64,000 nt of DNA from an uncultured Bacteroides sp. (GCA_964604175.1 CAZRYC010000002.1:5215-69214); one strand, 5' to 3'; shown: positions 2,254 through 56,179, counted from the first letter of the stretch. Made by a program: numbers and translations. Notes: generated from the letters alone by a model not told the origin.

Positions 2254-2280
2254 CAGGACTCACAGGACATGCAGGACCTG
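2254..2280. repeat. Degenerate 9-mer tandem array (CAGGACnnn x3)
   Basis: caggactca caggacatg caggacctg, shortly after the terminator. Confidence 0.55.
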
Positions 2281-2341
2281 ATTTTGGCAGATTTTCGACA
2301 TTTTATGGCGATTTTTTGACATTTCACATTATTCTATATTG

Positions 2342-2349
2342 TAATTTTG
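2342..2349 (+). promoter_or_regulatory. Bacteroidetes sigma-A -7 box (TAATTTTG)
   Basis: Matches TAnnTTTG about 70 bp upstream of ATG 2420. Confidence 0.6.
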
Positions 2350-2419
2350 CTATGCGTAAAAAGGAGCGATAGGCTCCCATGAAATCCTGAATCGATAATA
2401 TTTCATACATTTTACTTAT

Positions 2420-5050
2420 ATGACACGGAAATCCCTTTCCCTGAATGGCGCTTTCTCCGTCCTGGCAATCGCTACATTGTTAGGCACGGCTTTGTCGGGT
2501 TGCAGCGACGAAGTGAAAGCCCCCGCAGAAAACCCCACCGACCAGGAGGAAACCCTCACCGAGACAGCCTCCATGACCGTGGTGTCCGATCCCGCCACCC
2601 TTGGCAAGTATGTGCGCAACTACGCTACTCTCTACTCATCGCCCTATTCAGCCGGCCGCTCCCGCGCATTGAGCGCTACCTCAATGCCAGCCCTGAGCTC
2701 CTGGGATAAGGCAAAGGCAGCAGCCTCCACCGTGACCACCTACCAAACCTGGGACAACATCTCCAGCAATTTTGTGCTTGCGAGCGACCACAGCGGTGAG
2801 TTGAAAGTGTACCCCAACCAGATCATTTTCATCGAGGGCAATGTCAGCACCGACAACATCTGGGGCGAGGGCGCCGACAATGGCGCAAGCCTGGTAGTGC
2901 TCCCCGGAGCCACACTCACCATCGAGATCCAACCGCTACAGGTGAGCATCTACAATTACGGCACACTCAACCTCACCAGTGCCGACGGCATTGATGTGCA
3001 TGCTGGCAACCAACTGATGACCACTGGCGACTTGGGCACCGCCGAAAGCCCCATCCCCTATGTGCACAGCTGCCAAAGCGACACAAAGGCTGGCGATATC
3101 TATGTTGGCGGCACGCTCTATGTAGATGAGTGGGTGCCCGAATATGGCAACCATTATGCTGCCAATGTTGAGGCCAACACTGCCGGCATCGGCGGCGATG
3201 TGTATATCGCCAACAAATTCACTGCCACCAATTGCCAAGTGCGCACCACCGGGCGCCTCTACGCCAAGTGCGCCTACTTCGACGACTGGTTCAACGCCAC
3301 CAACGGCTCCATCTCAAAATTTGGCAACTACATGGTGGCCCGCGGCATCGACGAGCTCTTCAACAACGATGGCAACTGCCCGGCAGTGGCCCTATATATC
3401 GATGCTGATGCCGCTGTGGAGATCTGCGACGGCGGCGTGATCGAGAGCAAGAAAGGTGCTTACCTGGCCAATCTGGGCACCAGCGTGGTGCAAGGCCCGG
3501 AGACAGGCTCAGCTGTATTCAAAGTGGCTGGCAATATTCGCGCCGACGGCGGGGTGAACGATTACACAAAAACCTTCCGCAACCACTTGGCTATCTTTGC
3601 CGACAGCTTCACTGACGGAGGATCGGATACAGAGGTGTGCTTTGCCAACACAGTCAACGTGCTCTTCAACCCCGGGGCTTGCGACTTTACCCAGGCCGCA
3701 GGCGAGTGCAGCCCGGCCATCAACATGCCCGACTGCGAAGACCCATGCCCGGATCCCGAAGATCCTTCTGATCCCGACCCGGATCCCGATCCGGACCCAG
3801 AGGTGCCTGAGGACGAGCCATTCCCAAGCCTGCCGACCTTGGCAGACATCGACGCTTGCCACACTCACCCCATCTCAGCTACCAGCGTGGCTATCGATGG
3901 CAACAACGCCTATGTGAGCTGGCACCTGCGCGGAGGCAACATCTGGGGCTGCCTGGAGAAATTCACCATCGCCAACGATGAGGTCACTCTCAACAGTTGG
4001 CTCGAAACCCCGGCTTACCTCGGCTACACTGACACCACCGAGGGCGCAGCCAAGGGTGTATCAGGAGCTGAGATTACCAATATCACAAATCATGGCACCG
4101 ATGCTGCCAATGCCTACGATTTCAACCATTGCATCGTAAGCAACGGATACCTGATCACTGTGGGAGACCACAAGGACAAGGGCGGCTTCGTGGGACGCGT
4201 GCTCCTGACCGACATCGCCGCCAATGCCAACGGCACTGACATACTGCAAGTGCGCGGCTTGGGCAAGGGGGATGACAATATCGCCGGAGGCAGCGGCAAC
4301 TGCGTGGTGCGCAAGGGCGACGAGCTCTTCATCACCAGCGCCGGAGGCTATCTGACGATGGACTATGCCACAAATGGCCTCAACTTCAATGTTGTGGCCA
4401 CCAAGAAGCAGACCTACAGCCCCTGGATCGACGCCATGGCTTCTGCCGGATCGGTTAAGCACATAGCCCTGAGCCCCGATGGCACCAAGGCTGTCACCAT
4501 AGAATATACGGCTCCCTATCTCACTGGCGAATGGTGGAATGATGACACCTCGACCCTGTCGGCAGCCATCAAGGTGTGGGATGTGACCAACGGCTGGGAT
4601 TATGAGAAGCCTACACAGACCATCGCTGTGGATGCTTTCGGCCCGGTATTCGGCAAGGATGTGATCGCCATCGAGAATGACGGCACCATCTACAGCTGCC
4701 AGGGCTGGAACGGAGTGGCTGTGTATCGCGGCGGCAGCGAGGTGGCACGCATCGACATACCCGCCTGGCTTGACGCCAACGCAGCTGACAAGGGCATCAA
4801 GATTAACGCTAACAAGTATCGCGGCTCAGCAGCCAACGGCCTGTGCATAGATGACAATTATGTATATGTGGCCAACGGCGGCGCCGGAGTGTGGGTGCTG
4901 GCCAAGGGCGATCTGGCCCCGCAAAGCTATTACCACAATTCGCTTGACGAGCAAAGCGGCGCCTCGGCCAACTATGTGGCCAAGATGGGCACCGACTACC
5001 TGATTGTGGCCTATGGCCGCTCAGGAGTGCGAGTGCTGAAACTCAATTAG
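2420..5050 (+). CDS. Surface lipoprotein: beta-rich N-domain, Pro/Asp linker, C-terminal LVIVD-like beta-propeller
   Basis: Lipobox LSGC; DPDPDPDPDPE linker; C-terminal motifs shared with the upstream paralog. Confidence 0.75.
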   Translation: MTRKSLSLNGAFSVLAIATLLGTALSGCSDEVKAPAENPTDQEETLTETASMTVVSDPATLGKYVRNYATLYSSPYSAGRSRALSATSMPALSSWDKAKAAASTVTTYQTWDNISSNFVLASDHSGELKVYPNQIIFIEGNVSTDNIWGEGADNGASLVVLPGATLTIEIQPLQVSIYNYGTLNLTSADGIDVHAGNQLMTTGDLGTAESPIPYVHSCQSDTKAGDIYVGGTLYVDEWVPEYGNHYAANVEANTAGIGGDVYIANKFTATNCQVRTTGRLYAKCAYFDDWFNATNGSISKFGNYMVARGIDELFNNDGNCPAVALYIDADAAVEICDGGVIESKKGAYLANLGTSVVQGPETGSAVFKVAGNIRADGGVNDYTKTFRNHLAIFADSFTDGGSDTEVCFANTVNVLFNPGACDFTQAAGECSPAINMPDCEDPCPDPEDPSDPDPDPDPDPEVPEDEPFPSLPTLADIDACHTHPISATSVAIDGNNAYVSWHLRGGNIWGCLEKFTIANDEVTLNSWLETPAYLGYTDTTEGAAKGVSGAEITNITNHGTDAANAYDFNHCIVSNGYLITVGDHKDKGGFVGRVLLTDIAANANGTDILQVRGLGKGDDNIAGGSGNCVVRKGDELFITSAGGYLTMDYATNGLNFNVVATKKQTYSPWIDAMASAGSVKHIALSPDGTKAVTIEYTAPYLTGEWWNDDTSTLSAAIKVWDVTNGWDYEKPTQTIAVDAFGPVFGKDVIAIENDGTIYSCQGWNGVAVYRGGSEVARIDIPAWLDANAADKGIKINANKYRGSAANGLCIDDNYVYVANGGAGVWVLAKGDLAPQSYYHNSLDEQSGASANYVAKMGTDYLIVAYGRSGVRVLKLN

Positions 5051-5086
5051 CGACCAGGACAAGCCTAAATTTTTGTAATCAAAATA

Positions 5087-5116
5087 AAATCTTTGCTAAA
5101 TAGCAAAGATTTTTTT
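5087..5116 (+). terminator. Hairpin/terminator after the lipoprotein gene
   Basis: aaaatctttgcta-aa-tagcaaagatttt inverted repeat plus T-run. Confidence 0.7.
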
Positions 5117-5137
5117 GTTTTTTGAAGAAGATTGACT

Positions 5138-5145
5138 TAATTTTG
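5138..5145 (+). promoter_or_regulatory. -7 box (TAATTTTG) of the first susC
   Basis: TAnnTTTG consensus, with a TTTG element upstream. Confidence 0.6.
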
Positions 5146-5211
5146 CCTACGAAATGTTTTTTAACCAAAATCAACAGATTTAAACTTAAAAACAACTAAT
5201 ACCAAGTCATC

Positions 5212-5253
5212 AACAAACCAAAGTCACTCAAAAACAAACCAAAATCACTCAAA
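5212..5253 (+). repeat. 21-bp direct repeat x2 in the susC leader
   Basis: aacaaaccaaagtcactcaaa / aacaaaccaaaatcactcaaa (1 mismatch). Confidence 0.8.
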
Positions 5254-5280
5254 TACACCTAAATTAACCAACTAATTAAC

Positions 5281-8721: not shown

Positions 8722-8782
8722 CCTAAAAGAATTGGATTACACCCATATTGATGATTCTGTAATAGATAAATAAAAATATAAT

Positions 8783-10561
8783 ATGAAACACAAATATATA
8801 TATGGGCTGATGGCTATGGCTGCTCTGTCGCTTTCAAGCTGCAATCACTTGCTTGAGGACAACCGCTACCCTCTGGACCAGCAGACCAATACTCCAGAAT
8901 ACTGGAACACATCAGCCAATGTAGAGCTGCAGATCAACTTCCTCTACTACTATTACCTGGGCTACGGCAACACCACCTCCTGGGTCAACAACTTCTACTA
9001 TCGCTCCTTGGGCGATGACCAGTGCACCCACATGTACTCTGGCGACGGCGTGCAGTTCGCCCGCTGGGAGTATCAGCAAGTGCCTACCAACGCCTCAGAG
9101 TGGGATGACGGCTACACCGCAATCCGCCGCATCAACAACATTATCCAAGGGGTGAGCAACAGCACCCTGGCCGAAGGCGAGAAGAACAGCTACCTGGGCA
9201 TCGCACGCATGAACCGCGCTTACCAGTACTATCAGCTTGTGCGCTGCTTCGGCGATGTGCCTCTGGTGCAAGAGGTGCTCGACCCCAATGATACAGAGGC
9301 TCTCTACGGACCTCGCGTGTCGCGCAACACCGTGATGGATGCCGCCTATGAGGATGTGCAATTCGCTGTGGACAATATCCTCACACAGTCGAGCGTGATG
9401 GAGTTCAGCGCCGACATGGCCAATGCCATGAAGGCTGAGATCTGCCTGTTCGAGGCCGCTTATTCGCGCTATGCTCTCAAGGACGACACCCGCGCCACCA
9501 CATATTACAACCGTGTGGTGGAGGCTTGCCAGGCTATCATGAGCAAGAGCTATCGCCTCTGCGATAACTATCAGAGCCTCTACAACTCAGTATTCACCGC
9601 CAACGCTGCCGATGGCCTCGAGAGCCTAACAGCCAACCCCGAGGTAATCTTCATGAAGGCTTATGAGACTGGCGTAAAGGGCCACTCTTTGCTTGCTTAC
9701 CTTAGCGCCGGCACTATGATCAATGGTATCACCAAGGACGCTTTCGATGCTTTCCTCTTCAAGGATGGCAAGCCCTTAGCCCTGACCACCGAGGACACCT
9801 CCGATGCCGCTAAGCTGATAATCGAGGGCACTGACAGTATCGTGTCAATCCAGCACCTGCTGGATGTGCGCGACGATCGCTTGTCGATGACCGTGGATCC
9901 CTTCTTGGCTTGGACCGGACACAAGGCTGCTCGCTCCAACTCCGACTTCCTGAGCTCTTCCACCGGCTATCTGATCAAGAAGTATGTCAATCCCAACCTC
10001 CCAAGCCTGATTTGCGTGACCGACGGCCAGAGCAACACTTGCGCTCCTCTGTACTGGCTGGCTGAGATCTACTTAGCCTATGCCGAGGCAAAGGCTGAGC
10101 TTGGCACTATCACCGATAGCGACCTGGATGCTACTATCAACAAGCTGTACACCCGCGCCGGGCTGCCCACCCAGACAGTGGCATCGCTTTCGAGCATGAA
10201 CGACCCGGCCAACAACATGAATGTATCGAGCCTGCTGTGGGAGATCCGCCGCTGCCGCCGCTGCGAGCTGATGATGGACAACTACCACCGCTACTGGGAT
10301 CTGATCCGCTGGCACCAGCTCGACAAGCTGGATAGCAACAACTATCCCAACATCGCCCTGGGGGCCAACCTGAGCGATATCCCCTCAGAGCTGACAAAGG
10401 AAATCACTCTGGTTAACGGCTATGTGGATGGAGCCTCTACGGGCAGCACCCGCCAGACCCGCACATTCACTGAGCGCGAGTATTTCTACCCCATCGGCAA
10501 GAACCAGATTGACCTCTACACCCAGAAGGGCTACACCCTGAGCCAGAACCCTGGCTGGTAA
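8783..10561 (+). CDS. susD: SusD/RagB family lipoprotein
   Basis: Lipobox LSSC, FGDVP, LAEIYLAYAEA, EIRRCRRCELMM...RYWDLIRW, QNPGW end; follows susC. Confidence 0.95.
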   Translation: MKHKYIYGLMAMAALSLSSCNHLLEDNRYPLDQQTNTPEYWNTSANVELQINFLYYYYLGYGNTTSWVNNFYYRSLGDDQCTHMYSGDGVQFARWEYQQVPTNASEWDDGYTAIRRINNIIQGVSNSTLAEGEKNSYLGIARMNRAYQYYQLVRCFGDVPLVQEVLDPNDTEALYGPRVSRNTVMDAAYEDVQFAVDNILTQSSVMEFSADMANAMKAEICLFEAAYSRYALKDDTRATTYYNRVVEACQAIMSKSYRLCDNYQSLYNSVFTANAADGLESLTANPEVIFMKAYETGVKGHSLLAYLSAGTMINGITKDAFDAFLFKDGKPLALTTEDTSDAAKLIIEGTDSIVSIQHLLDVRDDRLSMTVDPFLAWTGHKAARSNSDFLSSSTGYLIKKYVNPNLPSLICVTDGQSNTCAPLYWLAEIYLAYAEAKAELGTITDSDLDATINKLYTRAGLPTQTVASLSSMNDPANNMNVSSLLWEIRRCRRCELMMDNYHRYWDLIRWHQLDKLDSNNYPNIALGANLSDIPSELTKEITLVNGYVDGASTGSTRQTRTFTEREYFYPIGKNQIDLYTQKGYTLSQNPGW

Positions 10562-10578
10562 TTTTAACCACCAATCAT

Positions 10579-10614
10579 AAGAAAAGCCATCCCCGCTTAG
10601 GGATGGCTTTTCTT
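10579..10614 (+). terminator. Rho-independent terminator
   Basis: 15-bp stem aagaaaagccatccc / gggatggcttttctt. Confidence 0.85.
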
Positions 10615-10617
10615 GTA

Positions 10618-10704
10618 TCGAAAATTCTCGAAAATTTTCGAAAATTCTCGAAAGCGCTCGAAAATTCTCGAAAGCGCTCGAAATTTTTCGAGAATTCTCG
10701 AAAG
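10618..10704. repeat. 10-bp-period palindromic micro-array with 9 TCGA cores
   Basis: TCGA at 10618, 10628 ... 10698 at exact 10-bp spacing; variable 6-nt linkers (aaattc, aaattt, aagcgc, gaattc). Confidence 0.95.
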
Positions 10705-10867
10705 TTATTGGGCTAAATTGGGTGGGCATTCGTCTATTTTGCGTTTTTTTAACTTTGTTTTTAATTTATTTCCCTTTAAATTTGCAAAATCTTATTAAAC
10801 CAATCTTCACTCTTGTGTTTGGCCCCTTGGGACCGTCCAAGAAATTATTTCATCAATTTACTTGTTT

Positions 10868-14044: not shown

Positions 14045-14065
14045 TAATTTCAACATCATTGCGAC

Positions 14066-15979: not shown

Positions 15980-16002
15980 CACCCCCCCTTACTCCCCATA
16001 AA

Positions 16003-16037
16003 AAAAAAGCCATCCCGCACCCCGGGATGGCTTTTTT
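16003..16037. terminator. Bidirectional terminator between convergent susD and muramidase genes
   Basis: aaaaaagccatcccg / cgggatggctttttt; stem core matches the 10579 terminator. Confidence 0.85.
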
Positions 16038-16040
16038 GTT

Positions 16041-16106
16041 TCAAGAATTTTCGAAAGTTTTCGAAAGTTTTCGAGATTTTTCGAGATTTTTCGAGAGGTT
16101 TCGGGG
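16041..16106. repeat. 10-bp-period micro-array with 5 TCGA cores plus 2 degenerate units
   Basis: TCGA at 16051, 16061, 16071, 16081, 16091; tcaa at 16041 and tcgg at 16101. Confidence 0.93.
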
Positions 16107-16835: not shown

Positions 16836-16839
16836 AAGA

Positions 16840-16907
16840 TAGGAATATAGGAATAAAGGAATCCTAAGCATCTTAGGAGACCTAAGGCGCTTAGGATTCT
16901 TAGGGTG
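16840..16907. repeat. Degenerate 8/9-mer micro-array (A[GA]GnnnC[CT]T)
   Basis: aggaatcct aagcatctt aggagacct aaggcgctt aggattctt, preceded by taggaata x2; fills the pepD-muramidase gap. Confidence 0.85.
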
Positions 16908-18368: not shown

Positions 18369-18535
18369 GATTGAATATTGATTTTAGGGTTATAAAGTGT
18401 AAACAAGTGTGGAGTTATGAGAAATAATGTTAAAAAACACTGATTTTCGACCTCTAAATTACTAAATAAAATTGACATATTACAAAAAATTGGACAAACT
18501 TTTTTATATTTGCACAATGATTTTGAAAATTGACG

Positions 18536-18776: not shown

Positions 18777-19382
18777 ATGAAGAAAATTGCTACTCTCTTG
18801 CTGGCCGGCTTTGCTATTATGATGACAGCCTGCTCATCCAAGGACACCGCTCCTGCAGCAAATGCTGCGCAGCAAGGTGAACCGTTCGAGTCTGTGACCA
18901 ACATCCGATATGTGTGGGGTGACTCGATCAACCAATATTATACATTCTCGCAGTCCACGGCCCTTACCAATCAGCAGATCCAAGCCGAGCTGGTGGCTTA
19001 CTACAACCAGCTGCAGAATCAGCTTCAGGCAATGCAGAACCAGTTTCAGCAGAAGCTGCAGAACAATGGCTTCCTGACCGAGTCAGCCGCTCAGTCGGAG
19101 GCTAAGAAAATCCAGCAGACAGCCACCAATTATGAGAATCTCTACGCCAAGCGCGAAGCCGAGGCCATGGAGAAGATTAACAATAACAACAAGGTGCTGC
19201 ATGACTCGATCATGAATTTCATCGTAAGCTATAACAACGAGAAGAAATTCGATGCCATCCTCTATGGCGAGACAGCCATGTATCTGAACCCGGCCTTGGA
19301 CATCACCCAGGAGGTGATTGACGGGCTTAACGCCCGCTACAAGGCTCCGGTAGCCGCCCCGGCCACTGAGGAAAAGAAATAA
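18777..19382 (+). CDS. ompH: OmpH/Skp family chaperone (lipoprotein-type N-terminus)
   Basis: IRYVWGDSI, Q-rich coiled coil, LDITQEVIDGLNARY. Confidence 0.85.
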   Translation: MKKIATLLLAGFAIMMTACSSKDTAPAANAAQQGEPFESVTNIRYVWGDSINQYYTFSQSTALTNQQIQAELVAYYNQLQNQLQAMQNQFQQKLQNNGFLTESAAQSEAKKIQQTATNYENLYAKREAEAMEKINNNNKVLHDSIMNFIVSYNNEKKFDAILYGETAMYLNPALDITQEVIDGLNARYKAPVAAPATEEKK

Positions 19383-19398: not shown

Positions 19399-19425
19399 AA
19401 GCGCCCCACAAGGGGCGCTTTTTTT
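19399..19425 (+). terminator. Rho-independent terminator
   Basis: aagcgcccc-acaa-ggggcgctt followed by a T-run. Confidence 0.9.
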
Positions 19426-19430
19426 ATTAT

Positions 19431-19547
19431 AGGAATCCTAGGTATCCTAGGAATCCTAGGAATCCTAGGAATCCTAGGGTGCCTAGGATGCCTAGGGTGC
19501 CTAGGATTCCTAGGATGCCTAGGGAGCCTAGGGAGCCTAAAAATCCT
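19431..19547. repeat. 9-mer palindromic micro-array: (AGGnnnCCT)12 plus 1 degenerate unit, giving 11 CCTAGG junctions
   Basis: Units aggaatcct, aggtatcct, agggtgcct, aggatgcct, aggattcct, agggagcct; lies between the terminator and the -7 box TAACTTTG at 19579. Confidence 0.97.
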
Positions 19548-19612
19548 ATTCCAGTAACCAAGAATTGAGAATTTTTTGTAACTTTGCGGTTTAGAACAAA
19601 AGCTATTGAAAA

Positions 19613-20062
19613 ATGGACTTATTTGAAACCGTGAACGAAGGCATCAAAAATGCCATGAAAGCGCGCGACAGAGTGCGCCTTGAGGCCCTGAAGGGCATCA
19701 AGAAAGAGTTTCTCGAAGCTAAGACTGCTCCCGGAGCCAATGGCGAGCTCCCCGACGACAAAGCTATGTCCATCCTGGTGAAGATGGCAAAGCAGCGCCG
19801 CGAGACTGCCGACATATACACCCAGAACAACCGCCCCGACCTGGCCGAAGGCGAGCTCAACGAGCTCAAGGTCATCGAAGAGTTCTTGCCCAAGGCCCTC
19901 AGCCCCGAGGAGCTGGAAGCCGAGCTCAAAAAGATTATCGCCCAGGTGGGTGCCACCAGCGCCAAAGAGATGGGCAAGGTGATGGGAGTGGCCACAAAGG
20001 CTCTCCAAGGCCGCGCCGATGGCAAGGCCATCAGCGCCAAGGTTAAAGAATTACTGGCTTAA
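19613..20062 (+). CDS. yqeY: GatB/YqeY domain protein
   Basis: IKNAMKARD, KQRRETADIY, FLPKALS, EMGKVMG, GRADGK. Confidence 0.93.
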   Translation: MDLFETVNEGIKNAMKARDRVRLEALKGIKKEFLEAKTAPGANGELPDDKAMSILVKMAKQRRETADIYTQNNRPDLAEGELNELKVIEEFLPKALSPEELEAELKKIIAQVGATSAKEMGKVMGVATKALQGRADGKAISAKVKELLA

Positions 20063-20088
20063 GAAGGTTAAAGAATTACTGGCTTAAG
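20039..20088 (+). repeat. Perfect 25-bp tandem duplication of the yqeY 3' end
   Basis: aaggttaaagaattactggcttaag at 20039-20063 and 20064-20088. Confidence 0.95.
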
Positions 20089-31018: not shown

Positions 31019-31990
31019 TTAATTACCGAAAGAGAGGGTGGTGTAGAAACGAGTGGAGCCGTTGCTGGCCACGCCGCTATTGAACTGCAGCTGCACATAG
31101 TTGCCTCCGGGGCCCCACCAGGTGGTCTGCACACCGCCGCCGGCCAAAGCTATGCGGCTGATGGGAGCGCCGTAAGCGTTATAGAGGCGGTTGTAGGCTA
31201 AGTTGTATCGGTTCATGTCGTAGTAAGGTGTGGAATAGAAGAATTCCGAACCTACTAAGCCGCCGCCAGCTCCGTAGTACAGGGTGGCATTGGGCCACAA
31301 TAGATTGAGCTGCATGGCATCAGCCACATAGATAGCATCATCGCCATAGCCTGTGACATTATAGCCGCTATTGATCAGATTGCTTATAGTGGCACCAATG
31401 GCAGTGCCGATAGCCACACCAAGGATGGTGTTAATGATAGGGCCACCTCCTGAATACACCCATCCAGCCGGACGAACCGGACGGCGGTAAGGAGCCGGAG
31501 GAGGGAGCAAAGGACGAGCCGGACGACCCTGAGGCACACCGCCAAAGGCTGGGCCGGCTGGCCCTGGGCCAGGACGCATCCCGGGAGCGCCAAAATTCCA
31601 ATTATTGCCGGGATGATTGCCAGGGCGCTGGTTGCCATTGTTCATGCCGGGATGATTGCCTGGGCGCTGGTTGCCGTTGTTCATGCCGGGCTGGTTGCCT
31701 GGGCGCTGATTGCCGTTGTTTCCAGGGCGCACTTGAGAGGGGGTATTGTTGCCCCAACCGCTATTTCCAGGACGACCGGAATTATTCTGCCCGCTATTGC
31801 CAGGCCGGGTATTATTGCCGCTGTTGCCGGGGCGAGCATTGTTGCCGCTGCGGCTTGGCGATTGCTGTTGAGTGCGCTGGGGCTGCTGTTGCTGATTGCC
31901 GCCATTGTTGCGTCCGCGAGCCTCTACCATTGGGCATACTAAAGCGCCGCAAAGCAGGGCTACAACTATTTTCTTTACAAGGGTATTCAT
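31019..31990 (-). CDS. Exported hypothetical protein with N/G/P/R/Q low-complexity repeats
   Basis: Signal peptide; about 3 copies of a 13-aa repeat QRPGN[QH]PGMNNGN; Tyr-rich globular C-terminus. Confidence 0.8.
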   Translation of the reverse strand: MNTLVKKIVVALLCGALVCPMVEARGRNNGGNQQQQPQRTQQQSPSRSGNNARPGNSGNNTRPGNSGQNNSGRPGNSGWGNNTPSQVRPGNNGNQRPGNQPGMNNGNQRPGNHPGMNNGNQRPGNHPGNNWNFGAPGMRPGPGPAGPAFGGVPQGRPARPLLPPPAPYRRPVRPAGWVYSGGGPIINTILGVAIGTAIGATISNLINSGYNVTGYGDDAIYVADAMQLNLLWPNATLYYGAGGGLVGSEFFYSTPYYDMNRYNLAYNRLYNAYGAPISRIALAGGGVQTTWWGPGGNYVQLQFNSGVASNGSTRFYTTLSFGN

Positions 31991-34308: not shown

Positions 34309-35784
34309 ATGCAAGAAGATAAAGTTAAAGATAAAAATAAGGATAAGGACCGTGATGAAATCCTCAATGAAGCCACTGGGGATTACAAATACGGCTTCTA
34401 CACCGATATCGATACTGATACCATCCCTCCGGGCCTCTCTGAAGAAGTAATTCGCCTGATTTCACATAAGAAAGGCGAACCGGAGTGGCTGCTTGACTTC
34501 CGCCTGAAAGCTTACCGCAAATGGATCACAATGAAGATGCCACACTGGGCGCATCTCACTATTCCGGAAATAGACTACCAAGCCATCAGCTATTATGCCG
34601 CTCCTAAGAAGAAGGAAGGGCCTAAGAGCATGGATGAGGTGGATCCCCAACTTGTGGAGACATTCAACAAGCTGGGCATCTCCCTGGAGGAACAAAAGCA
34701 CCTGGCGGGAGTGGCAGTAGATGCCGTAATGGACTCAGTGTCGGTAAAAACCACCCATAAAGAAAAGCTTGCCGAGCTGGGCATCATCTTCTGCTCTTTC
34801 TCTGAGGCTGTGCGCGATTACCCCGACTTGGTGCGCAAGTACCTGGGAAAGGTGGTGCCTTACACCGACAACTTTTTCGCTGCCCTCAATTCAGCAGTTT
34901 TCAGCGATGGCTCCTTCGTGTATATCCCCAAGGGAGTGCGATGCCCCATGGAGCTGAGCACTTATTTCCGCATCAATGCCTCGGGCACGGGACAGTTTGA
35001 GCGCACCCTGATTGTGGCCGATGATGATGCTTATGTGAGTTATCTCGAGGGGTGCACAGCACCTATGCGCGATGAAAACCAGCTGCATGCAGCCATCGTG
35101 GAGATAATCGTGGAGGAGCGAGCCGAGGTGAAATACAGCACCGTGCAGAACTGGTATGCCGGCGACAAGGACGGCAAAGGCGGAGTGTACAACTTCGTGA
35201 CCAAGCGCGGCCTCTGCCGCGGCGACAACAGCAAACTGAGCTGGACCCAAGTGGAGACCGGCAGTGCGATCACATGGAAATACCCCGGCTGCATCTTGGC
35301 TGGCAACAATTCGATAGGCGAATTCTACTCTGTAGCTCTCACCAATAATCACCAGCAAGCCGACACTGGCACCAAGATGATTCACATCGGTCGCAATACC
35401 CGCTCCACAATAGTGAGCAAAGGCATCAGCGCCGGGTATAGCCAGAATAGCTATCGCGGCTTGGTAAAAGTGGCTCCAGACGCCGAGGGCGCGCGCAATT
35501 ACACCCAGTGCGACTCATTGCTGCTGAGCGAGACCTGCGGGGCACACACCTTCCCCTACATCGATGTGCTCAACGACAGCGCAGTAGTGGAGCATGAGGC
35601 TACCACCTCAAAAATCTCTGAGGATCAGCTCTTTTATTGCAATCAGCGCGGCATCCCCACTGAGGAAGCTGTAGGCTTGATTGTCAACGGCTACGCCAAG
35701 GAGGTAATGAATAAGCTGCCTATGGAGTTCGCAGTAGAAGCGCAGCGGCTGCTTTCGATATCATTGGAAGGCTCCGTGGGATAG
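34309..35784 (+). CDS. sufB: Fe-S cluster assembly protein SufB
   Basis: [39 protein letters not shown]. Confidence 0.98.
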
Positions 35785-35816
35785 TCAAGTTGTAATGTTT
35801 TCAAGTTGTCAAGTTA
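35785..35816. repeat. Degenerate 8-mer array (TCAAGTTG-like x4) in the sufB-sufC gap
   Basis: tcaagttg taatgttt tcaagttg tcaagtta. Confidence 0.6.
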
Positions 35817-40573: not shown

Positions 40574-40576
40574 TCA

Positions 40577-42091: not shown

Positions 42092-42331
42092 ACCTAAAGC
42101 GCCACAAATAGCATCAAAGCGAGGCTAAAACAAACTTCGCAAAGCAAAGATAGCAAATATTTCTTTGTCAACAAAATTTTTGACTTTTTTATCAAAAATC
42201 TTTATTTCTGAAAAAAATAAAGAATTTTTACTTTTTTATTTGGTCACTTGTAAAATTTCTCGTATTTTTGGGGATTGAATAATTTTATTTACCTTAAATA
42301 ACCTATAAAAACAACCAAAATACCATAATAA

Positions 42332-44320: not shown

Positions 44321-44335
44321 CACCACGATACCGCA

Positions 44336-45598
44336 ATGAAAGCATTAATGTTCGGGTGGGAATTCCCCCCTCATATCTTAGGCGGACTTGGCACGGCGAG
44401 CTACGGCCTGACCAAAGGCATGTGGGAGTGCGGCGACATGGATATCACTTTTGTCATCCCCAAGCCCTGGGGCGATGAGGACCGCTCTTTTGCTAACATC
44501 ATCGGCGCAAGCCAAGTGCCTGTATGCTGGCGCGATGTCAACTACGACTATGTAGAGAGCCGCATAGGCAAGGTCATGAATCCGGAGCTGTACTTCCGTC
44601 TGCGCGACCACATTTACGCCGATTTCAACTATATGCGCACCAATGATCTCGGTTGCATCGAGTTCTCCGGTCGCTATCCCGACAATCTGCTTGAGGAAAT
44701 CAACAACTACTCAATCATGGCCGGCGTGGTGGCCCGCACCCTCGACTTCGACATCATTCATAGCCACGACTGGCTCACCTATCCCGCTGGCATCCATGCC
44801 AAGCAGGTTAGCGGCAAACCTCTGGTAATCCATGTGCACGCCACAGATTACGACCGCAGCCGCGGCAATGTGAACCCCACTGTGTTCTCAATCGAGCGCG
44901 ATGGCATGCTCAATGCCGACCATATCATCACAGTGAGCAACCTCACTCGGCAGACGGTAATCGAGAAGTACGGCATCGACCCCAACAAGGTGACCACAGT
45001 GCACAATGCCGTAGTGCCTCTGAGCGATGAGCTGCTCAATGTACAGGTGAACAAGCCTAAGGAGAAAGTGGTGACTTTCTTAGGTCGCATCACCATGCAG
45101 AAAGGCCCTGAATACTTCGTGGAAGCTGCTGCCAAGGTGCTGAAGAATAATCACAACGTGCGCTTCGTGATGGCTGGCTCCGGCGATATGATGGACAAGA
45201 TGATCAACTTGGCAGCCGAGCGCGGCATCAGCGATCGCTTCCATTTCCCTGGCTTCCAGAAAGGCAAGCAAGTGTACGAGATGCTCAAAGCGAGCGATGT
45301 GTACATCATGCCATCTGTATCGGAGCCTTTCGGCATCTCGCCTCTGGAGGCTATGCAGATGGGCGTGCCCAGCATCATCAGCAAGCAGAGCGGTTGCGCA
45401 GAGATTCTCAACAATGTCATCAAAACCGACTATTGGGACATCGATGCCATGGCCGACGCCATCAACTCTATCTGCTCCTATCCGGCAATGTACGAGACGC
45501 TGCGCGAGGACGGTCTGGCAGAAGTAGCTCAAATCACTTGGGACAAGGCTGGCCAGAAAGTAATCGACATTTACAACAAAGTGCTTGGAAAGGCGTAA
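44336..45598 (+). CDS. GT4 glycosyltransferase (glycogen synthase-like)
   Basis: GWEFPPHILGGLG, HSHDWLT, GRITMQKG, PSVSEPFGI. Confidence 0.92.
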   Translation: MKALMFGWEFPPHILGGLGTASYGLTKGMWECGDMDITFVIPKPWGDEDRSFANIIGASQVPVCWRDVNYDYVESRIGKVMNPELYFRLRDHIYADFNYMRTNDLGCIEFSGRYPDNLLEEINNYSIMAGVVARTLDFDIIHSHDWLTYPAGIHAKQVSGKPLVIHVHATDYDRSRGNVNPTVFSIERDGMLNADHIITVSNLTRQTVIEKYGIDPNKVTTVHNAVVPLSDELLNVQVNKPKEKVVTFLGRITMQKGPEYFVEAAAKVLKNNHNVRFVMAGSGDMMDKMINLAAERGISDRFHFPGFQKGKQVYEMLKASDVYIMPSVSEPFGISPLEAMQMGVPSIISKQSGCAEILNNVIKTDYWDIDAMADAINSICSYPAMYETLREDGLAEVAQITWDKAGQKVIDIYNKVLGKA

Positions 45599-45618
45599 GG
45601 CATTAGGCATCAGGCTTA
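45591..45618. repeat. Degenerate 7-mer array (AGGCnTn x4) overlapping the GT4 stop
   Basis: aggcgta aggcatt aggcatc aggctta. Confidence 0.5.
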
Positions 45619-45663
45619 AAGTCTTCAACATCAAAAAATAAAAATTTAAAATAAACAAAGACA

Positions 45664-47133: not shown

Positions 47134-47151
47134 ACTATTAGGGTTAAGTAG

Positions 47152-47194
47152 ATATAGGGACATTTTAGTCATGAAAACTAAAATGTCCCTATAT
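47152..47194. terminator. 18-bp perfect-stem hairpin between convergent genes
   Basis: atatagggacattttagt / actaaaatgtccctatat. Confidence 0.75.
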
Positions 47195-47217
47195 TTATAG
47201 CCAGTCAAAAATACAAT

Positions 47218-50509: not shown

Positions 50510-50545
50510 TGTTGTACAATATATATTTATTACTATAATATTATG

Positions 50546-52543
50546 CTATATCCTGAAGCATGCTGTCACCATCCAGCTTCGCCCAGGCATCGGATAGCGG
50601 GCTACCACGCAATATTGCTTGTCAAAGGCGTTGATCAAGTCGGCTCTCAGTTCCAAGGTTTTTCTCCCTGGCAAAGCGAATTGGCGCCAGGCCGTAAAGC
50701 CCGCCTCCACATACCCGGCAAACCGAGTGGCAGGAAGATTATTGTTAGTGGTATATCGGTCGCTGACCCCCGTGGCGTGAGCCGAGACATTGACCCAGGG
50801 ATTTTCCCAAGCCAAGGAAGCGGCTCCAGAATGCTTGGGAGTATAGGCCACCTGCTTGTTCCACTCGCTGCTCTCGCGATTGGTGCGAGGCTGGGCGCGC
50901 TGATAGCTGTAATTGCCACTGAGTATCAATCGGTGGCAACCACCGAGCCTAAAAGTAGCATCCAAGGTGGCATCCACGCCGTAGCTGCGCACCTTGCTGA
51001 GGTTCACCACTCTCCACACAAACATATTGTAGGGCACGCACACAATCATGTCATTGATATGATTGAGGTACCCATCCACTGTCAGGGTCAATTCCAGCAA
51101 CCACTCCGCACTTTTGGCCGTATATGTGGCTCCTATGTTCACTTGGTTGGTGGTCTCCGGGAGCACATCGGCGCTGCCATAATGGTCGAAATAGCACTCG
51201 TTGAAGCTTGGCATTCGGAATATCTGCTTGTAGCTGGCGCGGAAATAGATATTCTGGCTCATCCAAGGGCGGTAAGAGGCAGATAGCGATGGGGAGAGCT
51301 TATGAGCATTCTTGGCGCTTGTGCCGACCTTGGCGCCATTGTAATACAACGAGCAGAGCAAGCGCGCCATCACTGTGAAATGCCGGTCGCGATACTTTCC
51401 GGTGAGAGATTGCAACACTGAGTGGCGATAGGGATGATTATTGCTGCTGAGGTTGCTGGATAGATTATTGAAGAAATAATCCAGAGAGTAGTCGGCGCTC
51501 CAATGCTGAGAGGGAAGCCACAGCAGAGAACCGGAAGCATACGCCTCGCGCTGGTAGTAATTCTGATTAAGCACACCGCCAGGGTATTTGCCATCCTCAT
51601 CATGGTAGAGGCTGCTGGCATAATTGTATTTGCCCACTCCCTTTACCAGCCAGTGCGAACTGATAGCCTGACTATAGCTAAGCTGACCAAAGGCATTTTC
51701 CTCGGCCAGGCGTTCGTGGCACACATTATTGTAATAGATTACTGGGCCGGGCAGTCTACGGCGGTTCTTGTAATAATAGCCCTTGGCATCGAGAGTGCCT
51801 CCTCCAGGGAGTAGCCAACGCAGATTAAGCTCGCCATGGCCAGTGTTCATGCGGCTGTTGTTACGCTTCTCTTTGGTAACTAATGTGCCATTGACCAGTG
51901 TAAATGGGTAATTGTTATCCGCATGGATAAAATCGCAGATAGCCACGCATTCCACTCGGCTGCTTAAAGGGGCTGACACCCTAACAAATGGATTGGCATA
52001 TCCAAAGCTTCCCACTCGCATCTTTGCGGTGAGAGCCCAAGCGGTGTCGGCCTCCATCATAGTGGCAATTTGCAGCGAGGCAGGGGCTGCAGCAGCGCGG
52101 GCTGGAATGAATATGTCTTCGTTGTCGCCTATGATTAGGCTCAGCTTGTCGATATTGTCAAGGGTATAGCGGCTCAGGTCGATGGCACCGCTCTGGATAT
52201 CGCTCAGTGGCACTCCGTCGTAGCTTACCGATGTATGGGCTGCCCCGAAGCCGCGCACCGATACTGTCTTGAGACCGCCAGCCCCGCCATAGTCGCGCAG
52301 AGTGGTGCCCGGCAAGCGATGGATAGCATCAGCCACATCAGTCACCCCTCCAGTAAGCAGCTTTGCGGCATCGAGCTCATGCGTGGGCGCAGTGGCGCGC
52401 ACCTCACGGTTCACCGGTTCACGGGTCACAGTGACTGTGCGCAGGGTATCGCGCAGCGACTGCGCATGCGCCATCGGGGCACACGCTGCACACAAGAAAA
52501 TTATTGATCCAATAATATGGCTACTCATCCTCGTAAGCGGCAT
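50546..52543 (-). CDS. btuB: TonB-dependent cobalamin receptor
   Basis: RDYGGAGGLKTVSVRG plug, YPMPGRSW C-terminus; downstream of a cobalamin riboswitch. Confidence 0.9.
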   Translation of the reverse strand: MPLTRMSSHIIGSIIFLCAACAPMAHAQSLRDTLRTVTVTREPVNREVRATAPTHELDAAKLLTGGVTDVADAIHRLPGTTLRDYGGAGGLKTVSVRGFGAAHTSVSYDGVPLSDIQSGAIDLSRYTLDNIDKLSLIIGDNEDIFIPARAAAAPASLQIATMMEADTAWALTAKMRVGSFGYANPFVRVSAPLSSRVECVAICDFIHADNNYPFTLVNGTLVTKEKRNNSRMNTGHGELNLRWLLPGGGTLDAKGYYYKNRRRLPGPVIYYNNVCHERLAEENAFGQLSYSQAISSHWLVKGVGKYNYASSLYHDEDGKYPGGVLNQNYYQREAYASGSLLWLPSQHWSADYSLDYFFNNLSSNLSSNNHPYRHSVLQSLTGKYRDRHFTVMARLLCSLYYNGAKVGTSAKNAHKLSPSLSASYRPWMSQNIYFRASYKQIFRMPSFNECYFDHYGSADVLPETTNQVNIGATYTAKSAEWLLELTLTVDGYLNHINDMIVCVPYNMFVWRVVNLSKVRSYGVDATLDATFRLGGCHRLILSGNYSYQRAQPRTNRESSEWNKQVAYTPKHSGAASLAWENPWVNVSAHATGVSDRYTTNNNLPATRFAGYVEAGFTAWRQFALPGRKTLELRADLINAFDKQYCVVARYPMPGRSWMVTACFRI

Positions 52544-52561
52544 ATCGATTTATAACACAAT

Positions 52562-52670
52562 TGCTGAGCAGGTCATCGGACTTGTCGCCATAGTGGCGCA
52601 TCACCGTAGCGGGACTGTCGAGGATTCTTACCTCACTTCCCCTGCCTATCGCTTCTCGCGGTTTCAGCAC
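52562..52670 (-). ncRNA. Cobalamin riboswitch (compact form)
   Basis: Minus strand reads GGGGAAgtgaggtaagAATCCtcgACAGtCCCGCtACGGTGA...AAGTCCGATGACCTGC (B12 box); -7 box TATCTTTG at 52680-52673. Confidence 0.9.
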
Positions 52671-52720
52671 CGCAAAGATACAACATTTTTTTCAATTGAC
52701 AAGGGGTTAGCGGTTAGTGG

Positions 52721-52843
52721 TTTTCAGTTTTCAGTTTTCAGTTTTCAGATTCCCCAATTTATTATTAACTTTGCATTTTATATTTTACTGAAAACTGAAA
52801 ACTGAAAACTGAAAACTGAAAACTGAAAACTGAAAACTGAAAA
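52721..52843. repeat. Inverted 7-mer arrays (TTTTCAG)4 and (CTGAAAA)8 flanking a promoter
   Basis: 52721-52748 and 52788-52843; the 39-bp spacer contains TAACTTTG at 52766-52773. Confidence 0.95.
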
Positions 52844-52846
52844 CCC

Positions 52847-54100
52847 TTGCTTGCTCTCAGCCCGCTCATAGTATTTCTGTGCCTGTACTTGGTCACATCG
52901 TTGGTCCTCAACGACTTCTATGCTGTGCCCATCACCGTGGCATTCGTCATCTCCTCGATCTATGCCGTGGCCATCACCCGAGGTGAGACCATGCGCGAGC
53001 GTGTGGACCATTTCTCAGCCGGAGCCGCCCACCCCAATATCATGCAGATGATTTGGATCTTCATCTTAGCAGGAGCTTTCGCCGCCAGTGCCAAGGATAT
53101 AGGCAGCATCGAGGCCACAGTCAACCTCAGTCTGCAGCTGCTGCCCGGGCAGTGGGTTCCTGCGGGCCTTTTCTTAGGCTCATGCTTCATATCTCTTGCC
53201 ATCGGCACCTCGGTAGGCACAGTGGTGGCCATGGTGCCAGTAGCTGCCGGCATAGCCGATGTCACAGGCACAAGCTTGGGCTTTATGGTAGCCATAGTGG
53301 TAGGCGGGGCTTTCTTTGGCGACAATCTCAGCTTCATCTCCGACACCACGATAGCGGCCACGCGTTCGCAGGGCTGCGAGATGCGCGACAAATTTATGGC
53401 CAACCTGCGCATAGTGCTGCCAGCAGCCGTGGTGGTACTTATTATATACATTGTGTGCGGCCTGGAGGGCAACTATGACGCCATCACCGTGGGCGATGTG
53501 GATTATGTGAAGATCTTGCCCTACATAGTGGTGCTGGTGGGAGCCTTGGCTGGTATAAATGTGATGGTGGTGCTGGTGCTGGGCATAATCACCGTGTTGG
53601 GGGTAAGCCTGATCACTGGGGCTGCCGATGTTTTGGGCTGGTTCTCGTCAATGGGGCAGGGCATAGCCGGCATGGGCGACCTGATAGCCGTCACCCTGCT
53701 TGCCGGAGGCATGCTGGAGCTCATACGCATCAATGGCGGCATCGATTACTTGCTTAGAGCCTTAACGCGCAAGGTGCATGGACGAAGAGGAGCGGCCCTG
53801 TCGATAGCCGGGCTGGTAAGCGTGGCCAACGTATGCACAGCCAACAATACCATAGCCATCATCACCGTGGGTCAGATCTCCCGCGACATCTCAGTGCGCT
53901 ACGGTCTCGATCCCAAGCGCGTGGCCAGCATCTTAGACACCTATTCCTGCGTGATGCAAGGGGTGCTTCCCTATGGCGCACAGCTGCTGATGGCGGGCAG
54001 CTTGGCAGCCTGCTCGCCGCTCACCATCATCGGCTATCTTTATTATCCTATGATTTTATTAGTCACAGCCACAGCCTCAATCATTCTGCGCCGCAGCTAA
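52847..54100 (+). CDS. NhaC-family (Na+/H+ antiporter-like) transporter
   Basis: ISLAIGTSVGT, GGAFFGDNLSFISDTTIAAT, ANNTIAI, LPYGAQ; TTG start next to the repeat. Confidence 0.88.
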   Translation: MLALSPLIVFLCLYLVTSLVLNDFYAVPITVAFVISSIYAVAITRGETMRERVDHFSAGAAHPNIMQMIWIFILAGAFAASAKDIGSIEATVNLSLQLLPGQWVPAGLFLGSCFISLAIGTSVGTVVAMVPVAAGIADVTGTSLGFMVAIVVGGAFFGDNLSFISDTTIAATRSQGCEMRDKFMANLRIVLPAAVVVLIIYIVCGLEGNYDAITVGDVDYVKILPYIVVLVGALAGINVMVVLVLGIITVLGVSLITGAADVLGWFSSMGQGIAGMGDLIAVTLLAGGMLELIRINGGIDYLLRALTRKVHGRRGAALSIAGLVSVANVCTANNTIAIITVGQISRDISVRYGLDPKRVASILDTYSCVMQGVLPYGAQLLMAGSLAACSPLTIIGYLYYPMILLVTATASIILRRS

Positions 54101-54103
54101 GGC

Positions 54104-55972: not shown

Positions 55973-55981
55973 GATATCAGA

Positions 55982-55998
55982 TTTAGAGCCTGTTTAAT
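55982..55998 (+). repeat. 17-bp direct repeat, copy 1 (TTTAGAGCCTGTTTAAT)
   Basis: Identical to 61593-61609. Confidence 0.8.
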
Positions 55999-56127
55999 TC
56001 CTATGGCAAAGTTAACAAATTTTCCTGATTTCCATGATTTACCTCTTCTAATTAATCCTAAAAGTTTTCATCTTAAAAAGAATATGCCATCTGACAGCAG
56101 GAAAGAAAGTCGCTGTTTCATCAAAAG

Positions 56128-56179
56128 CGAAAATTTCGTGCGAAATTTTCGCACGAAATTTTCACACGAAATTTTCACA
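56128..56179. repeat. 13-mer palindromic micro-array x4 (CGAAATTTTC[GA]CA)
   Basis: cgaaaatttcgtg cgaaattttcgca cgaaattttcaca cgaaattttcaca. Confidence 0.9.

Follow-up and report, generated by a model that had tools for sequence, protein, structure and literature searches.

A stretch of 64,000 nucleotides from an uncultured gut Muribaculaceae bacterium (hereafter the window) carries short tandem arrays between its genes, and the question it raises is whether such arrays are written by a dedicated process, serve as platforms for a binding protein or arise by slippage. According to the original prediction, which named nine arrays in the window, they form recurring modules in which a stop codon or terminator is followed by a palindromic micro-array; slippage was argued to be insufficient, as it should neither vary units nor favour palindromes.

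Arrays were called with Tandem Repeats Finder (TRF; period 6-14, at least three copies) in the whole 2.65-Mb genome, a draft of 99 contigs that is 88% complete and has an estimated contamination of 0. Seven of the nine named arrays were recovered by this program, whereas the two at 2254 and 45591 are degenerate and score below 30. All TRF-called arrays in the window have 0% indels. The arrays and the hairpins next to them are the following, with MFE values and z scores for the predicted RNA where available.

2243..2284, plus strand: degenerate run of 9-mers with GGAC-containing units, read directly (TRF score <30), immediately 3' of a terminator at 2204-2241.
10583..10614, plus strand: intrinsic-terminator-like hairpin, 3' of a susD-like gene (8783-10561).
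10618..10703, plus strand: 10-mer array of 8.6 copies with a TCGA core (TRF), A/C-type unit on the sense strand, with the terminator on one side and, on the other, the -7 boxes belonging to the next susC-like gene; RNA MFE -33.3, z -3.8.
16009..16037, plus strand: terminator-like hairpin with the same stem as that at 10583.
16039..16103, no strand assigned: 10-mer array of 6.5 copies with a TCGA core (TRF), convergent genes on either side; MFE -25.3, z -3.7.
16839..16907, no strand assigned: 8/9-mer run, of which three 8/9-mer copies at 16839-16862 were called by TRF and the remainder was read directly; MFE -28.4, z -5.9.
19399..19427, plus strand: terminator hairpin with T-run, 3' of an ompH-like gene (18777-19382).
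19430..19548, no strand assigned: 9-mer array of 13.2 copies (TRF) with a constant CCTAGG, a variable 3-nt core and 11 CTAG sites, upstream of the -7 box belonging to yqeY-serS; MFE -83.1, z -9.7.
35784..35815, plus strand: 8-mer array of 4 copies (TRF, 75% matches), overlapping the sufB stop codon and occupying the 38-nt sufB-sufC gap.
45585..45618, plus strand: degenerate AGGCNTN heptamer run of 4 copies, read directly (TRF score <30), overlapping the stop of gene 44336-45598.
52720..52748, minus strand: main heptamer family, 4 copies (4.1; TRF), the A-rich strand being the minus strand, toward the minus-strand gene 50546-52543.
52787..52844, plus strand: main heptamer family, 8.3 copies (TRF), A-rich strand sense, ending 3 nt short of a predicted start at 52847; MFE -44.1, z -10.5.
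56127..56179, no strand assigned: self-complementary 13-mer array of 3.8 copies (TRF), a singleton family on the margin of an island of 35% G+C; MFE -22.7, z -6.0.

Both degenerate runs have relatives in the genome: the CAGGAC 9-mer family of the first forms clear arrays at C2:89005 (7.7 copies) and C52:9091 (4.8 copies), and the AGGCNTN family of the second also occurs elsewhere. The run at 16839..16907, which occupies the gap between two minus-strand genes, consists of AGGAAT units followed by CCTAAG and CTTAGG 9-mers in alternation and is a CTAG-free variant of the CCTAGG family. The two main-heptamer arrays constitute an inverted pair, with a 28-bp perfect inverted repeat flanking a TAACTTTG box. 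The hairpins at 10583 and 16009 and one on contig C59 have the stem words GCCATCC/GGATGGC in common; these three, together with one reversed copy, are the only such hairpins, and a 10-mer array comes next in three of the four. A search of the window against Rfam 15 gave no match at gathering score, the composite loci resembling only miRNA hairpins below threshold. CRISPR arrays were rejected as a candidate, as the units are contiguous and their variable part covers only 1-3 nt inside the unit.

The window proved to be a sample of a genome-wide, non-random and position-preferring array system. Throughout the genome, 343 arrays were detected, 251 of them with period 7, compared with 8 for period 8 and 7 for period 6. 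Main unit sizes of the intergenic arrays are 7, 9 and 10 nt, and a single main heptamer family accounts for 130 of the 343. Copy number per array ranges from 3 to 34, and almost every array has 0% indels. Together the arrays account for 5% of intergenic DNA and lie beside genes of all kinds; heptamers represent 78% of the non-coding arrays, and three quarters of all arrays are non-palindromic heptamers. The genome also contains 16 copies of a distinct hairpin that is REP-like and has a conserved box.

The expectation that placement is non-random was borne out: 308 of the 343 arrays (90%) are non-coding or lie at a gene edge, as against 11.7% non-coding DNA (binomial p about 1e-241), and a terminator-like hairpin abuts 18 of these 308 (6%) where about 5 were expected (p 1e-5; 5 of 29 among the 10-mers). 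The narrower claim that arrays begin near a stop codon or terminator applies to seven of the nine in the window, but genome-wide only those 18 abut a terminator-like hairpin. Likewise, a stop or terminator followed by a palindromic array is a minority pattern, with 6% touching a terminator and most arrays being non-palindromic heptamers. The window overstates the terminator rule because three of the seven terminator-adjacent 9-/10-mer arrays are located in it. Stops themselves are close: in same-strand gaps the median array-to-stop distance is 14 nt genome-wide, and in 52 genes the stop codon itself falls within an array.

Arrays are also oriented relative to genes. Where the main heptamer lies within 40 nt of a start, its A-rich strand is the sense strand in 60 of 64 cases, at a median of 9 nt before the start; in the opposite orientation, it lies at a median of 2 nt after stops. 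Inverted heptamer pairs always place the T-rich arm before the A-rich arm (15 pairs, none in the reverse order), and in three gaps a 10-mer array is found between two heptamer arms. The 10-mer arrays have one polarity relative to flanking genes in 15 of 16 and are nearer the stop than the start in 14 of 18 gaps; the same position is seen for 9-mers in 8 of 10 gaps. The strong polarity seen immediately behind stop codons cannot stem from coding constraint, a point against the reading preferred below. A replication-strand cause was rejected, since orientation tracks gene direction and not the sign of the GC skew. The 10-mer polarity is kept in all six cases in which gene direction is opposed to local GC skew, although this skew is a poor replication proxy in a draft genome where only 46% of genes agree with it.

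Folded as RNA, the sense strand of the 10-mer arrays is weaker than the antisense strand in 16 of 18 (mean -16.3 versus -28.9 kcal/mol). That the sense transcript is the weaker-folding strand argues against an RNA-hairpin or insulator role of the 10-mers. Intrinsic termination by the arrays was also rejected, as no T-runs follow them and separate terminators precede them in 18 cases.

In agreement with the original prediction, a strict period combined with a variable interior is evident from TRF and from unit tallies, and the constant cores are real. Self-complementarity was found in the 10-mer and 9-mer families only: units at least 80% self-complementary make up 64% of the 10-mer units (TCGA core) and 32% of the 9-mer units (CCTAGG core), versus 20% and 9% of the respective shuffled units, whereas heptamers are less palindromic than their shuffled counterparts. 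The main heptamer unit, AAACTGA, contains TGA, and its 7-nt period visits all frames. In each heptamer family, one hot position alternates between two states, all others being at most about 5% variable, and in three of the four main families this switch is between CpG and TpG. This hot spot does not reflect a general CpG effect, because the CpG within the TCGA core is 98% conserved. The argument that slippage can neither vary units nor favour palindromes is weak: what varies is a single two-state transition in each unit.

Variant units are not clustered along arrays, with 483 adjacent identical units observed versus 476 ± 11 after permutation; clustering is absent in 7-mers and 10-mers and weak in 9-mers (p 0.02). 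Moreover, the C variant has an almost constant share (21%) over 94 arrays (chi-square 139, 93 degrees of freedom). Under simple single-unit slippage with founder effects, variants should form runs and arrays should differ from one another, so that the absence of both counts against this simplest form of the model. As a single word, the heptamer is not enriched outside arrays (O/E 0.93). In 26 arrays compared with permutations of unit order, the variable cores showed no mirror order beyond the symmetry of the unit itself, indicating that arrays are not built as fold-back copies.

The CCTAGG arrays stand out against the rest of the genome. CTAG is about 30-fold depleted in coding and non-coding DNA alike, with an O/E of 0.03 outside arrays, and one third of all CTAG sites are concentrated in about 15 small CCTAGG arrays. 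One vsr gene and three C5-methyltransferase genes are encoded in the genome. Classical Vsr activity as the cause of CTAG loss is unsupported, as CCWGG is not over-represented (O/E 0.99) despite the vsr gene. Explaining this contrast between arrays and genome could reveal what purges CTAG in Bacteroidales.

Four consecutive copies of the main heptamer yielded 157 matches in this genome and none in six congeners; 4 of 144 other genomes of the family contain matches. The 10-mer arrays were found in none of 150 other family genomes and the 9-mer arrays in none of 70. In 275 kb sampled from six congeners, there is one heptamer array in total, and no array was found upstream of yqeY in ten congeners. 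At the sufB-sufC gap, four lineages, three of them besides this one, have arrays unrelated to each other, whereas most relatives have a plain A-rich spacer. Two heptamer units and a related 8-mer are shared by this genome and species of another genus (g13) but are lacking in the bacterium's own congeners; g13, the other array-rich genus, does not share the 9-mer, 10-mer or REP-like families, and the REP-like box was not found there. In one metagenome scan, a flanking yqeY 22-mer had 0 matches; in a second, the 10-mer array occurred in only two contigs, both unrelated. From these sequence comparisons, the array population appears to be species-specific with fast turnover, and about 340 arrays would have arisen after the split from the congeners, which have almost none.

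A link made in the original prediction, between such arrays and four-helix-bundle/23S-IVP or reverse transcriptase genes, did not hold in this genome. Neither PF05635 (bAvd-like/23S-IVP; positive in the B. thetaiotaomicron control) nor PF00078 (reverse transcriptase) has a match anywhere in the 88%-complete assembly. There is one clear Y1_Tnp (Y1 transposase) match. For a corresponding RAYT link the Y1 transposase is not discriminating and does not appear to track the arrays, since 7 or more of the 18 congeners sampled also have it, most of which were not themselves scanned for arrays. Around the 157 heptamer runs, no conserved flanks or target duplications were detected. Overall, nothing in the analysis pointed to a dedicated function of the arrays or to a dedicated writer.

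We lean, with somewhat better than even confidence, towards the arrays being intergenic simple-sequence repeats that slippage drives and that selection filters by position and strand. Slipped loops of units of 7 nt or more would be too large for MutS-type mismatch repair, and slippage would lengthen or shorten arrays by whole units, resulting in the strict period. Hairpin-forming repeats slip most readily, and in line with this established behaviour the TCGA and CCTAGG units and the inverted heptamer pairs would be favoured because hairpins stabilise slipped intermediates. Arrays survive only in non-coding DNA and in one polarity, probably as a result of selection. In this layout, the A-rich, weakly folding strand is sense and the main heptamer stands right before start codons, with the T-rich arm and the palindromic 9-/10-mers beside the stop; arrays appear glued to stops, terminators and starts because the gaps are short. 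The single two-state transition per unit suggests a mutational hot spot rather than error-prone templated synthesis; 5-methylcytosine may be deaminated there, with Vsr repair counteracting the change. Slippage does not account for the occurrence of one unit at 118-130 separate loci; our guess is that one unit could spread to more than 100 loci by copy-choice or ectopic recombination seeded by existing arrays.

Alternatively, the arrays might be selected binding platforms, the heptamer run binding a post-transcriptional factor (S1, Csp or similar) within the mRNA leader and the TCGA/CCTAGG arrays binding a DNA-binding protein or methyltransferase as a mark of where transcription units end. Constant cores alongside free interiors, strict polarity and placement, the homogeneous unit composition across loci and the retention of CTAG sites almost purged elsewhere would all fit such a role, which has been proposed for TAACTGA arrays (MacGregor 2015, PMC4679880). 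However, congeners with the same genes lack the arrays, so that no conserved function depends on them, and copy numbers from 3 to 34, neighbouring genes of all kinds and unrelated units at the same gap across lineages are hard to reconcile with a platform for which no candidate binding protein was identified; on balance, we regard it as rather unlikely. The survival of CTAG-core arrays in a CTAG-purged genome leaves room for a horizontally acquired trans-acting activity (a polymerase, primase-polymerase, HUH/Y1 enzyme or similar) that adds or copies units at nicks or the ends of genes and would have left the arrays as its footprints. Such an activity would accommodate the heptamer vocabulary common to genus g13 and missing from congeners, the random interspersion of variant units in a near-constant ratio at 94 loci, the above-chance adjacency to gene ends and terminators, and the Y1 transposase gene. 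We nevertheless consider it unlikely, given that reverse transcriptase and bAvd-like genes are lacking, that the Y1 transposase recurs in 7 or more of the 18 congeners sampled with no other array-rich congener among those examined, that g13 does not share the 9-mer, 10-mer and REP-like families, that the 157 heptamer runs have no conserved flanks or target duplications, and that the hot position is consistent with a CpG mutational hot spot. In a reading related to this one, a restriction-modification-linked protein would protect or use the CTAG and TCGA arrays.

For the 10-mers specifically, the A4-T2 tract that recurs every 10 bp could produce intrinsically curved DNA that boosts or insulates a promoter just downstream. 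In seven of the eight cases with a TAnnTTTG box, the box is located between array and start, and the window array is positioned 45-75 bp upstream of such boxes. Curvature is, however, equal in both orientations, yet 15 of 16 arrays have one polarity; of the 20 start-facing 10-mer arrays, 12 lack a recognisable promoter box in their vicinity, three 10-mer arrays have convergent genes on either side, and congeners do without the arrays, which makes this explanation very unlikely. Assembly or binning artefacts are extremely improbable. The draft does consist of 99 contigs, and 44 of the 343 arrays are at contig ends, but genuine repeats themselves cause such breaks; about 300 arrays are contig-internal with intact genes on both sides, and the unit variants, the orientation rules relative to real genes and the estimated contamination of 0 are not those of an artefact.

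As a study case, this genome is compact and extreme, with testable rules for polarity relative to transcription, for the order of parts and for one hot position per unit. In practical terms, the arrays break short-read assemblies, as at the 44 contig ends here, and could serve as strain markers for gut Muribaculaceae. To our knowledge, heptamer-rich intergenic repeats have been seen in bacteria since the 1990s and have been recognised as over-represented since 2007, with no mechanism or function assigned to them.

REP, BIME and REPIN elements of Proteobacteria are scattered as 20-40-nt single imperfect palindromes, either alone or in inverted doublets. The arrays resemble them in being intergenic, hairpin-forming, often right after stops or terminators and species-specific, and in the presence of a Y1 (RAYT-type) gene, but here palindromy stems from tandem 9-/10-nt units, 3-13 per array. 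Unlike in the diversity-generating retroelement/bAvd-RT system, no reverse transcriptase or bAvd/23S-IVP match exists in this 88%-complete genome. The GGGAATC/GGGGAYT heptamers of Xanthomonas and Nostoc are G-rich and quadruplex-forming, occupy the same sites between species and differ in length between related genomes (Rehm et al. 2015, PMC4692102). As in those repeats, about 90% of the present arrays are intergenic and they lie nearer the upstream ORF end than the next ORF; in contrast, the units here are A/T-rich and absent from congeners.

The closest counterpart of the main heptamer is the TAACTGA repeat, which is oriented forward and lies close upstream of start codons in marine Beggiatoaceae, cyanobacteria and five Bacteroidetes (MacGregor 2015, PMC4679880). 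AAACTGA, while not itself TAACTGA, is identical to it at six of seven bases in the same register, and the arrays likewise run forward a few nucleotides before starts, place stops in all frames, are mixed with other heptamers and have a patchy distribution. They differ in their far higher copy number (up to 34), in their inverted pairs of fixed polarity and in their gut Muribaculaceae host. More generally, long SSRs, as summarised from Mrazek et al. (2007) in PMC4692102 and PMC4679880, have units of 5-11 nt, are mostly intergenic, occupy many loci and are scattered phyletically; an excess of heptamers among bacterial SSRs and the idea of polymerase slippage are likewise attributed to Mrazek (2007) in PMC4692102. 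The present arrays iterate a 5-11-nt unit head to tail beyond chance length, and the 343 arrays show the excess of 7-nt units, the mostly intergenic location and the many loci per genome of that class. What sets them apart is that self-complementary 9-mer and 10-mer families and a REP-like hairpin occur beside the heptamers, and that the parts follow a fixed order of T-rich arm, palindromic array and A-rich arm. The arrays are thus a dense, species-specific case of the bacterial long-SSR/heptamer-repeat class, with two unusual palindromic families.

The intergenic arrays of the window are real and highly non-random. Seven of the nine named in the original prediction were confirmed by Tandem Repeats Finder (TRF); the other two, at 2254 and 45591, fall below its threshold, but direct reading identifies them as degenerate runs of unit families that are clear elsewhere in the genome.

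Arrays of the window confirmed by TRF, each with 0% indels
10618, intergenic array, terminator-like hairpin stopping 1-6 nt ahead
16039, intergenic array, terminator-like hairpin stopping 1-6 nt ahead
16839, intergenic array
19430 (19430-19548), CCTAGG-core 9-mer array, terminator-like hairpin stopping 1-6 nt ahead
35784, intergenic array
52720/52787, inverted pair of heptamer arrays
56127, 13-mer array at the edge of a 35% G+C island

Folding of the self-complementary arrays far exceeds that of dinucleotide shuffles, with -83 kcal/mol (z -9.7) for the window 9-mer array, and the inverted heptamer pair reaches -44 kcal/mol (z -10.5) against the same type of control. Three terminator hairpins have the stem words GCCATCC/GGATGGC in common and a fourth carries them with the arms swapped; a TCGA-core 10-mer array follows three of these four within a few nucleotides.

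Hairpins of the GCCATCC/GGATGGC set, including the arm-swapped one (G000, genome under study; C, its contigs)
window 10583-10614
window 16009-16037
G000:C59:464
G000:C3:39186

Other features of the window include a minus-strand 810-aa open reading frame in the low-G+C island (56000-60000; genome 50%), rejected by a codon-usage gene caller, and a perfect 25-bp direct duplication (x2.0, 20039-20088) across the yqeY stop/serS start junction. Repeats of 39 bp (x2.9) and 27 bp (x2.2) at 31606-31850 lie within a minus-strand gene (31019-31990) and look like coding repeats outside the intergenic array system.

The window covers bases 5215-69214 of contig 2 in a draft genome (2.65 Mb, 99 contigs, 50% G+C) that has an estimated completeness of 88% and an estimated contamination of 0%. 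The closest relatives of its SufB are found in Muribaculaceae metagenome-assembled genomes (MAGs; 85-87% amino-acid identity), and conserved genes share only 70-75% nucleotide identity with the congeners, that is, other genomes of the same genus, in the collection compared. Whole-genome TRF (period 6-14, at least three copies) identifies 343 arrays, 251 of period 7, 32 of period 9 and 31 of period 10. A single heptamer family, CTGAAAA with its CCGAAAA variant, accounts for 130 arrays, three other heptamer families for 19-28 apiece, the TCGA-core 10-mer for about 25 and the CCTAGG-core 9-mer for about 15. Arrays occupy 5% of intergenic bases, and 44 of them lie at contig ends. Non-coding or gene-edge positions hold 308 of the 343, compared with 11.7% of the DNA being non-coding (p ~1e-241) under crude calls of 1915 genes (88% coding). 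The window is thus a sample of a genome-wide system, with its emphasis skewed: non-palindromic heptamers make up three quarters of all arrays. The self-complementarity originally proposed holds for the 9-mer and 10-mer units, which exceed shuffled units, but for these two only.

Placement is strongly directional. For main heptamer arrays no more than 40 nt from a start codon (median distance 9 nt), the sense strand is the A-rich one in 60 of 64 cases; arrays of the opposite orientation lie a median of 2 nt past stop codons. When two main-family arrays share a gap, the T-rich arm precedes the A-rich arm in all 15 cases (reverse order, 0), the window pair 52720/52787 among them. Three composite gaps, two of which were read base by base, have T- and A-rich heptamer arms enclosing a 10-mer array. 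The 10-mer unit itself is quasi-palindromic with a single asymmetric base pair, and its A/C version lies on the sense strand in 15 of 16 same-strand gaps, tracking gene direction even in the six cases where local GC skew is opposed. Since the sense strand keeps the A/C version, it is the antisense RNA that forms the stronger fold (16/18), and this speaks against selection for an RNA hairpin. Both self-complementary families lie closer to the preceding stop than to the next start (14/18 gaps for 10-mers, 8/10 for 9-mers), and in 52 genes the stop codon is within an array.

Adjacency to terminators, central to the original prediction, is indeed enriched (18/308 arrays vs ~5 expected, p 1e-5) but rare; 5 of 29 10-mer arrays adjoin one. 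The proposed succession of terminator and palindromic array is therefore a local impression, and genome-wide the placement grammar is broader. For heptamer arrays, a Bacteroidetes -7 box (TAnnTTTG) was located between array and start in 58 cases and ahead of the array in another 10. As none was found in the other 146, many arrays lie in gaps that look promoter-less and may thus be inside operons.

A single position per heptamer family is hypervariable; it toggles between two states, the rarer of which accounts for 21-41%. The remaining positions vary by no more than ~5%, apart from one secondary position reaching ~11%. The two-state toggle runs from CpG to TpG or CpA in three of the four main families. 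The genome as a whole shows mild CpG depletion (0.84) and elevated TpG/CpA (1.18), and it carries three C5-methyltransferase genes and a vsr gene. A methylcytosine hot spot fits the toggle better than the error-prone copying suggested before. Variant units are unclustered along arrays, their share is near-constant across 94 arrays, and the CpG of the TCGA core is 98% conserved, observations that do not fit simple slippage. Fold-back copying was rejected as the origin of the arrays, because the order of variable cores has no mirror symmetry.

No tetranucleotide comes near CTAG in rarity: it is ~30-fold depleted, with an O/E of 0.024 in coding DNA and of 0.10 in intergenic sequence once the arrays are set aside, and the second-rarest word, GATC, stands at 0.56. 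Nevertheless, the CCTAGG arrays, ~0.05% of the genome, carry one third of all CTAG sites (75/227). Congeners are likewise depleted (0-2 sites per 32-80 kb sample), and depletion is milder (O/E ~0.3) in sampled contigs of two genomes of another Muribaculaceae genus, g13 (G043, G117). The textbook Vsr cause of CTAG loss is not evident, since CCWGG is not over-represented. These arrays may be outrunning a slow purge, be shielded from it or be used by a CTAG-recognising factor. The first base of the vsr gene (G000:C52:2817-3032, L117) coincides with the final one of a heptamer array (C52:2778-2817), itself preceded by a terminator-like hairpin.

Runs of four main-heptamer units are found 157 times in this genome and in none of six near-complete congeners; 4 of 144 other family genomes have them, three of these 4 belonging to g13. 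The g13 contigs of G043 and G117 (L108-L112), picked for a matching heptamer, are dense in arrays (27-50 per 100 kb). Two of their heptamer units recur in this genome, and they also have a related 8-mer (AAAGGATT type) that resembles the 9-mer found here. Six congeners yield one heptamer array in total (275 kb sampled), and ten congeners none upstream of yqeY. Arrays of the 10-mer turned up in none of 150 other family genomes and those of the 9-mer in none of 70; among JGI metagenomes, the 10-mer array matches only two unrelated contigs, with the same kind of array, which in the marine contig runs right up to an ATG. Four lineages have unrelated arrays in the sufB-sufC gap, which in the others is a plain A-rich spacer. 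In three other Bacteroidales MAGs, the sufB stop is directly followed by an array, namely a self-complementary 9-mer (CTAATTAG core) and two different heptamers. On this distribution, the repertoire is young, species-specific and repeatedly re-invented.

Arrays outside the genome (L, extracted loci or contigs)
L114:167-226, 10-mer array, marine GOS contig AACY023234426.1
L113:241-300, 10-mer array, metagenome contig
L011:4436-4530, L065:4465-4499 and L076:4459-4558, sufB-sufC arrays of the three other MAGs

A dedicated writer, as originally envisaged, is not supported, though it keeps a small probability. Neither a reverse transcriptase nor a 23S-IVP/bAvd-like gene was found in the 88% complete genome, and neither conserved flanks nor target duplications surround the 157 heptamer runs. 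Rfam yields no match. The genome has a Y1 transposase that also occurs in congeners, a set in which no array-rich genome turned up; its domain (IS200/RAYT-type) is part of a 402-aa open frame located where a contig ends (G000:C87:5719-6063, L115). Also present is a REP-like element, in which a hairpin of variable stem comes before a conserved GGGCTAACGCC box. Its 16 genome copies include a tandem run of six (47 bp), and it often directly precedes a main heptamer array; about a dozen of the 157 runs follow it. The element is specific to this genome, being essentially absent from 18 congeners and five genomes of g13 and a further genus, g33.

REP-like elements
G000:C16:31767-32010 (L121 ~768-1011)
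C16:22329-22430
C1:14877-14935
C3:48890-48929 (L122)

On balance, we lean slightly towards slippage-driven repeats, in which slippage would make the repeats and selection would filter them by position and strand; the spread of units between loci falls outside this explanation.

The array class is already known. Rehm et al. (PMC4692102, citing Mrazek 2007) summarise a heptamer excess among bacterial simple sequence repeats and the proposal that polymerase slippage underlies it. Neither in that text nor in MacGregor (PMC4679880) did we find self-complementary 9- or 10-mer families, a fixed place for these between heptamer arms, a single CpG/TpG toggle per unit or a measured CTAG contrast. The Xanthomonas repeats (Rehm et al., PMC4692102) lie just past the ends of open reading frames, as do arrays here, and the TAACTGA arrays (MacGregor, PMC4679880) are one base off the main unit of this genome.
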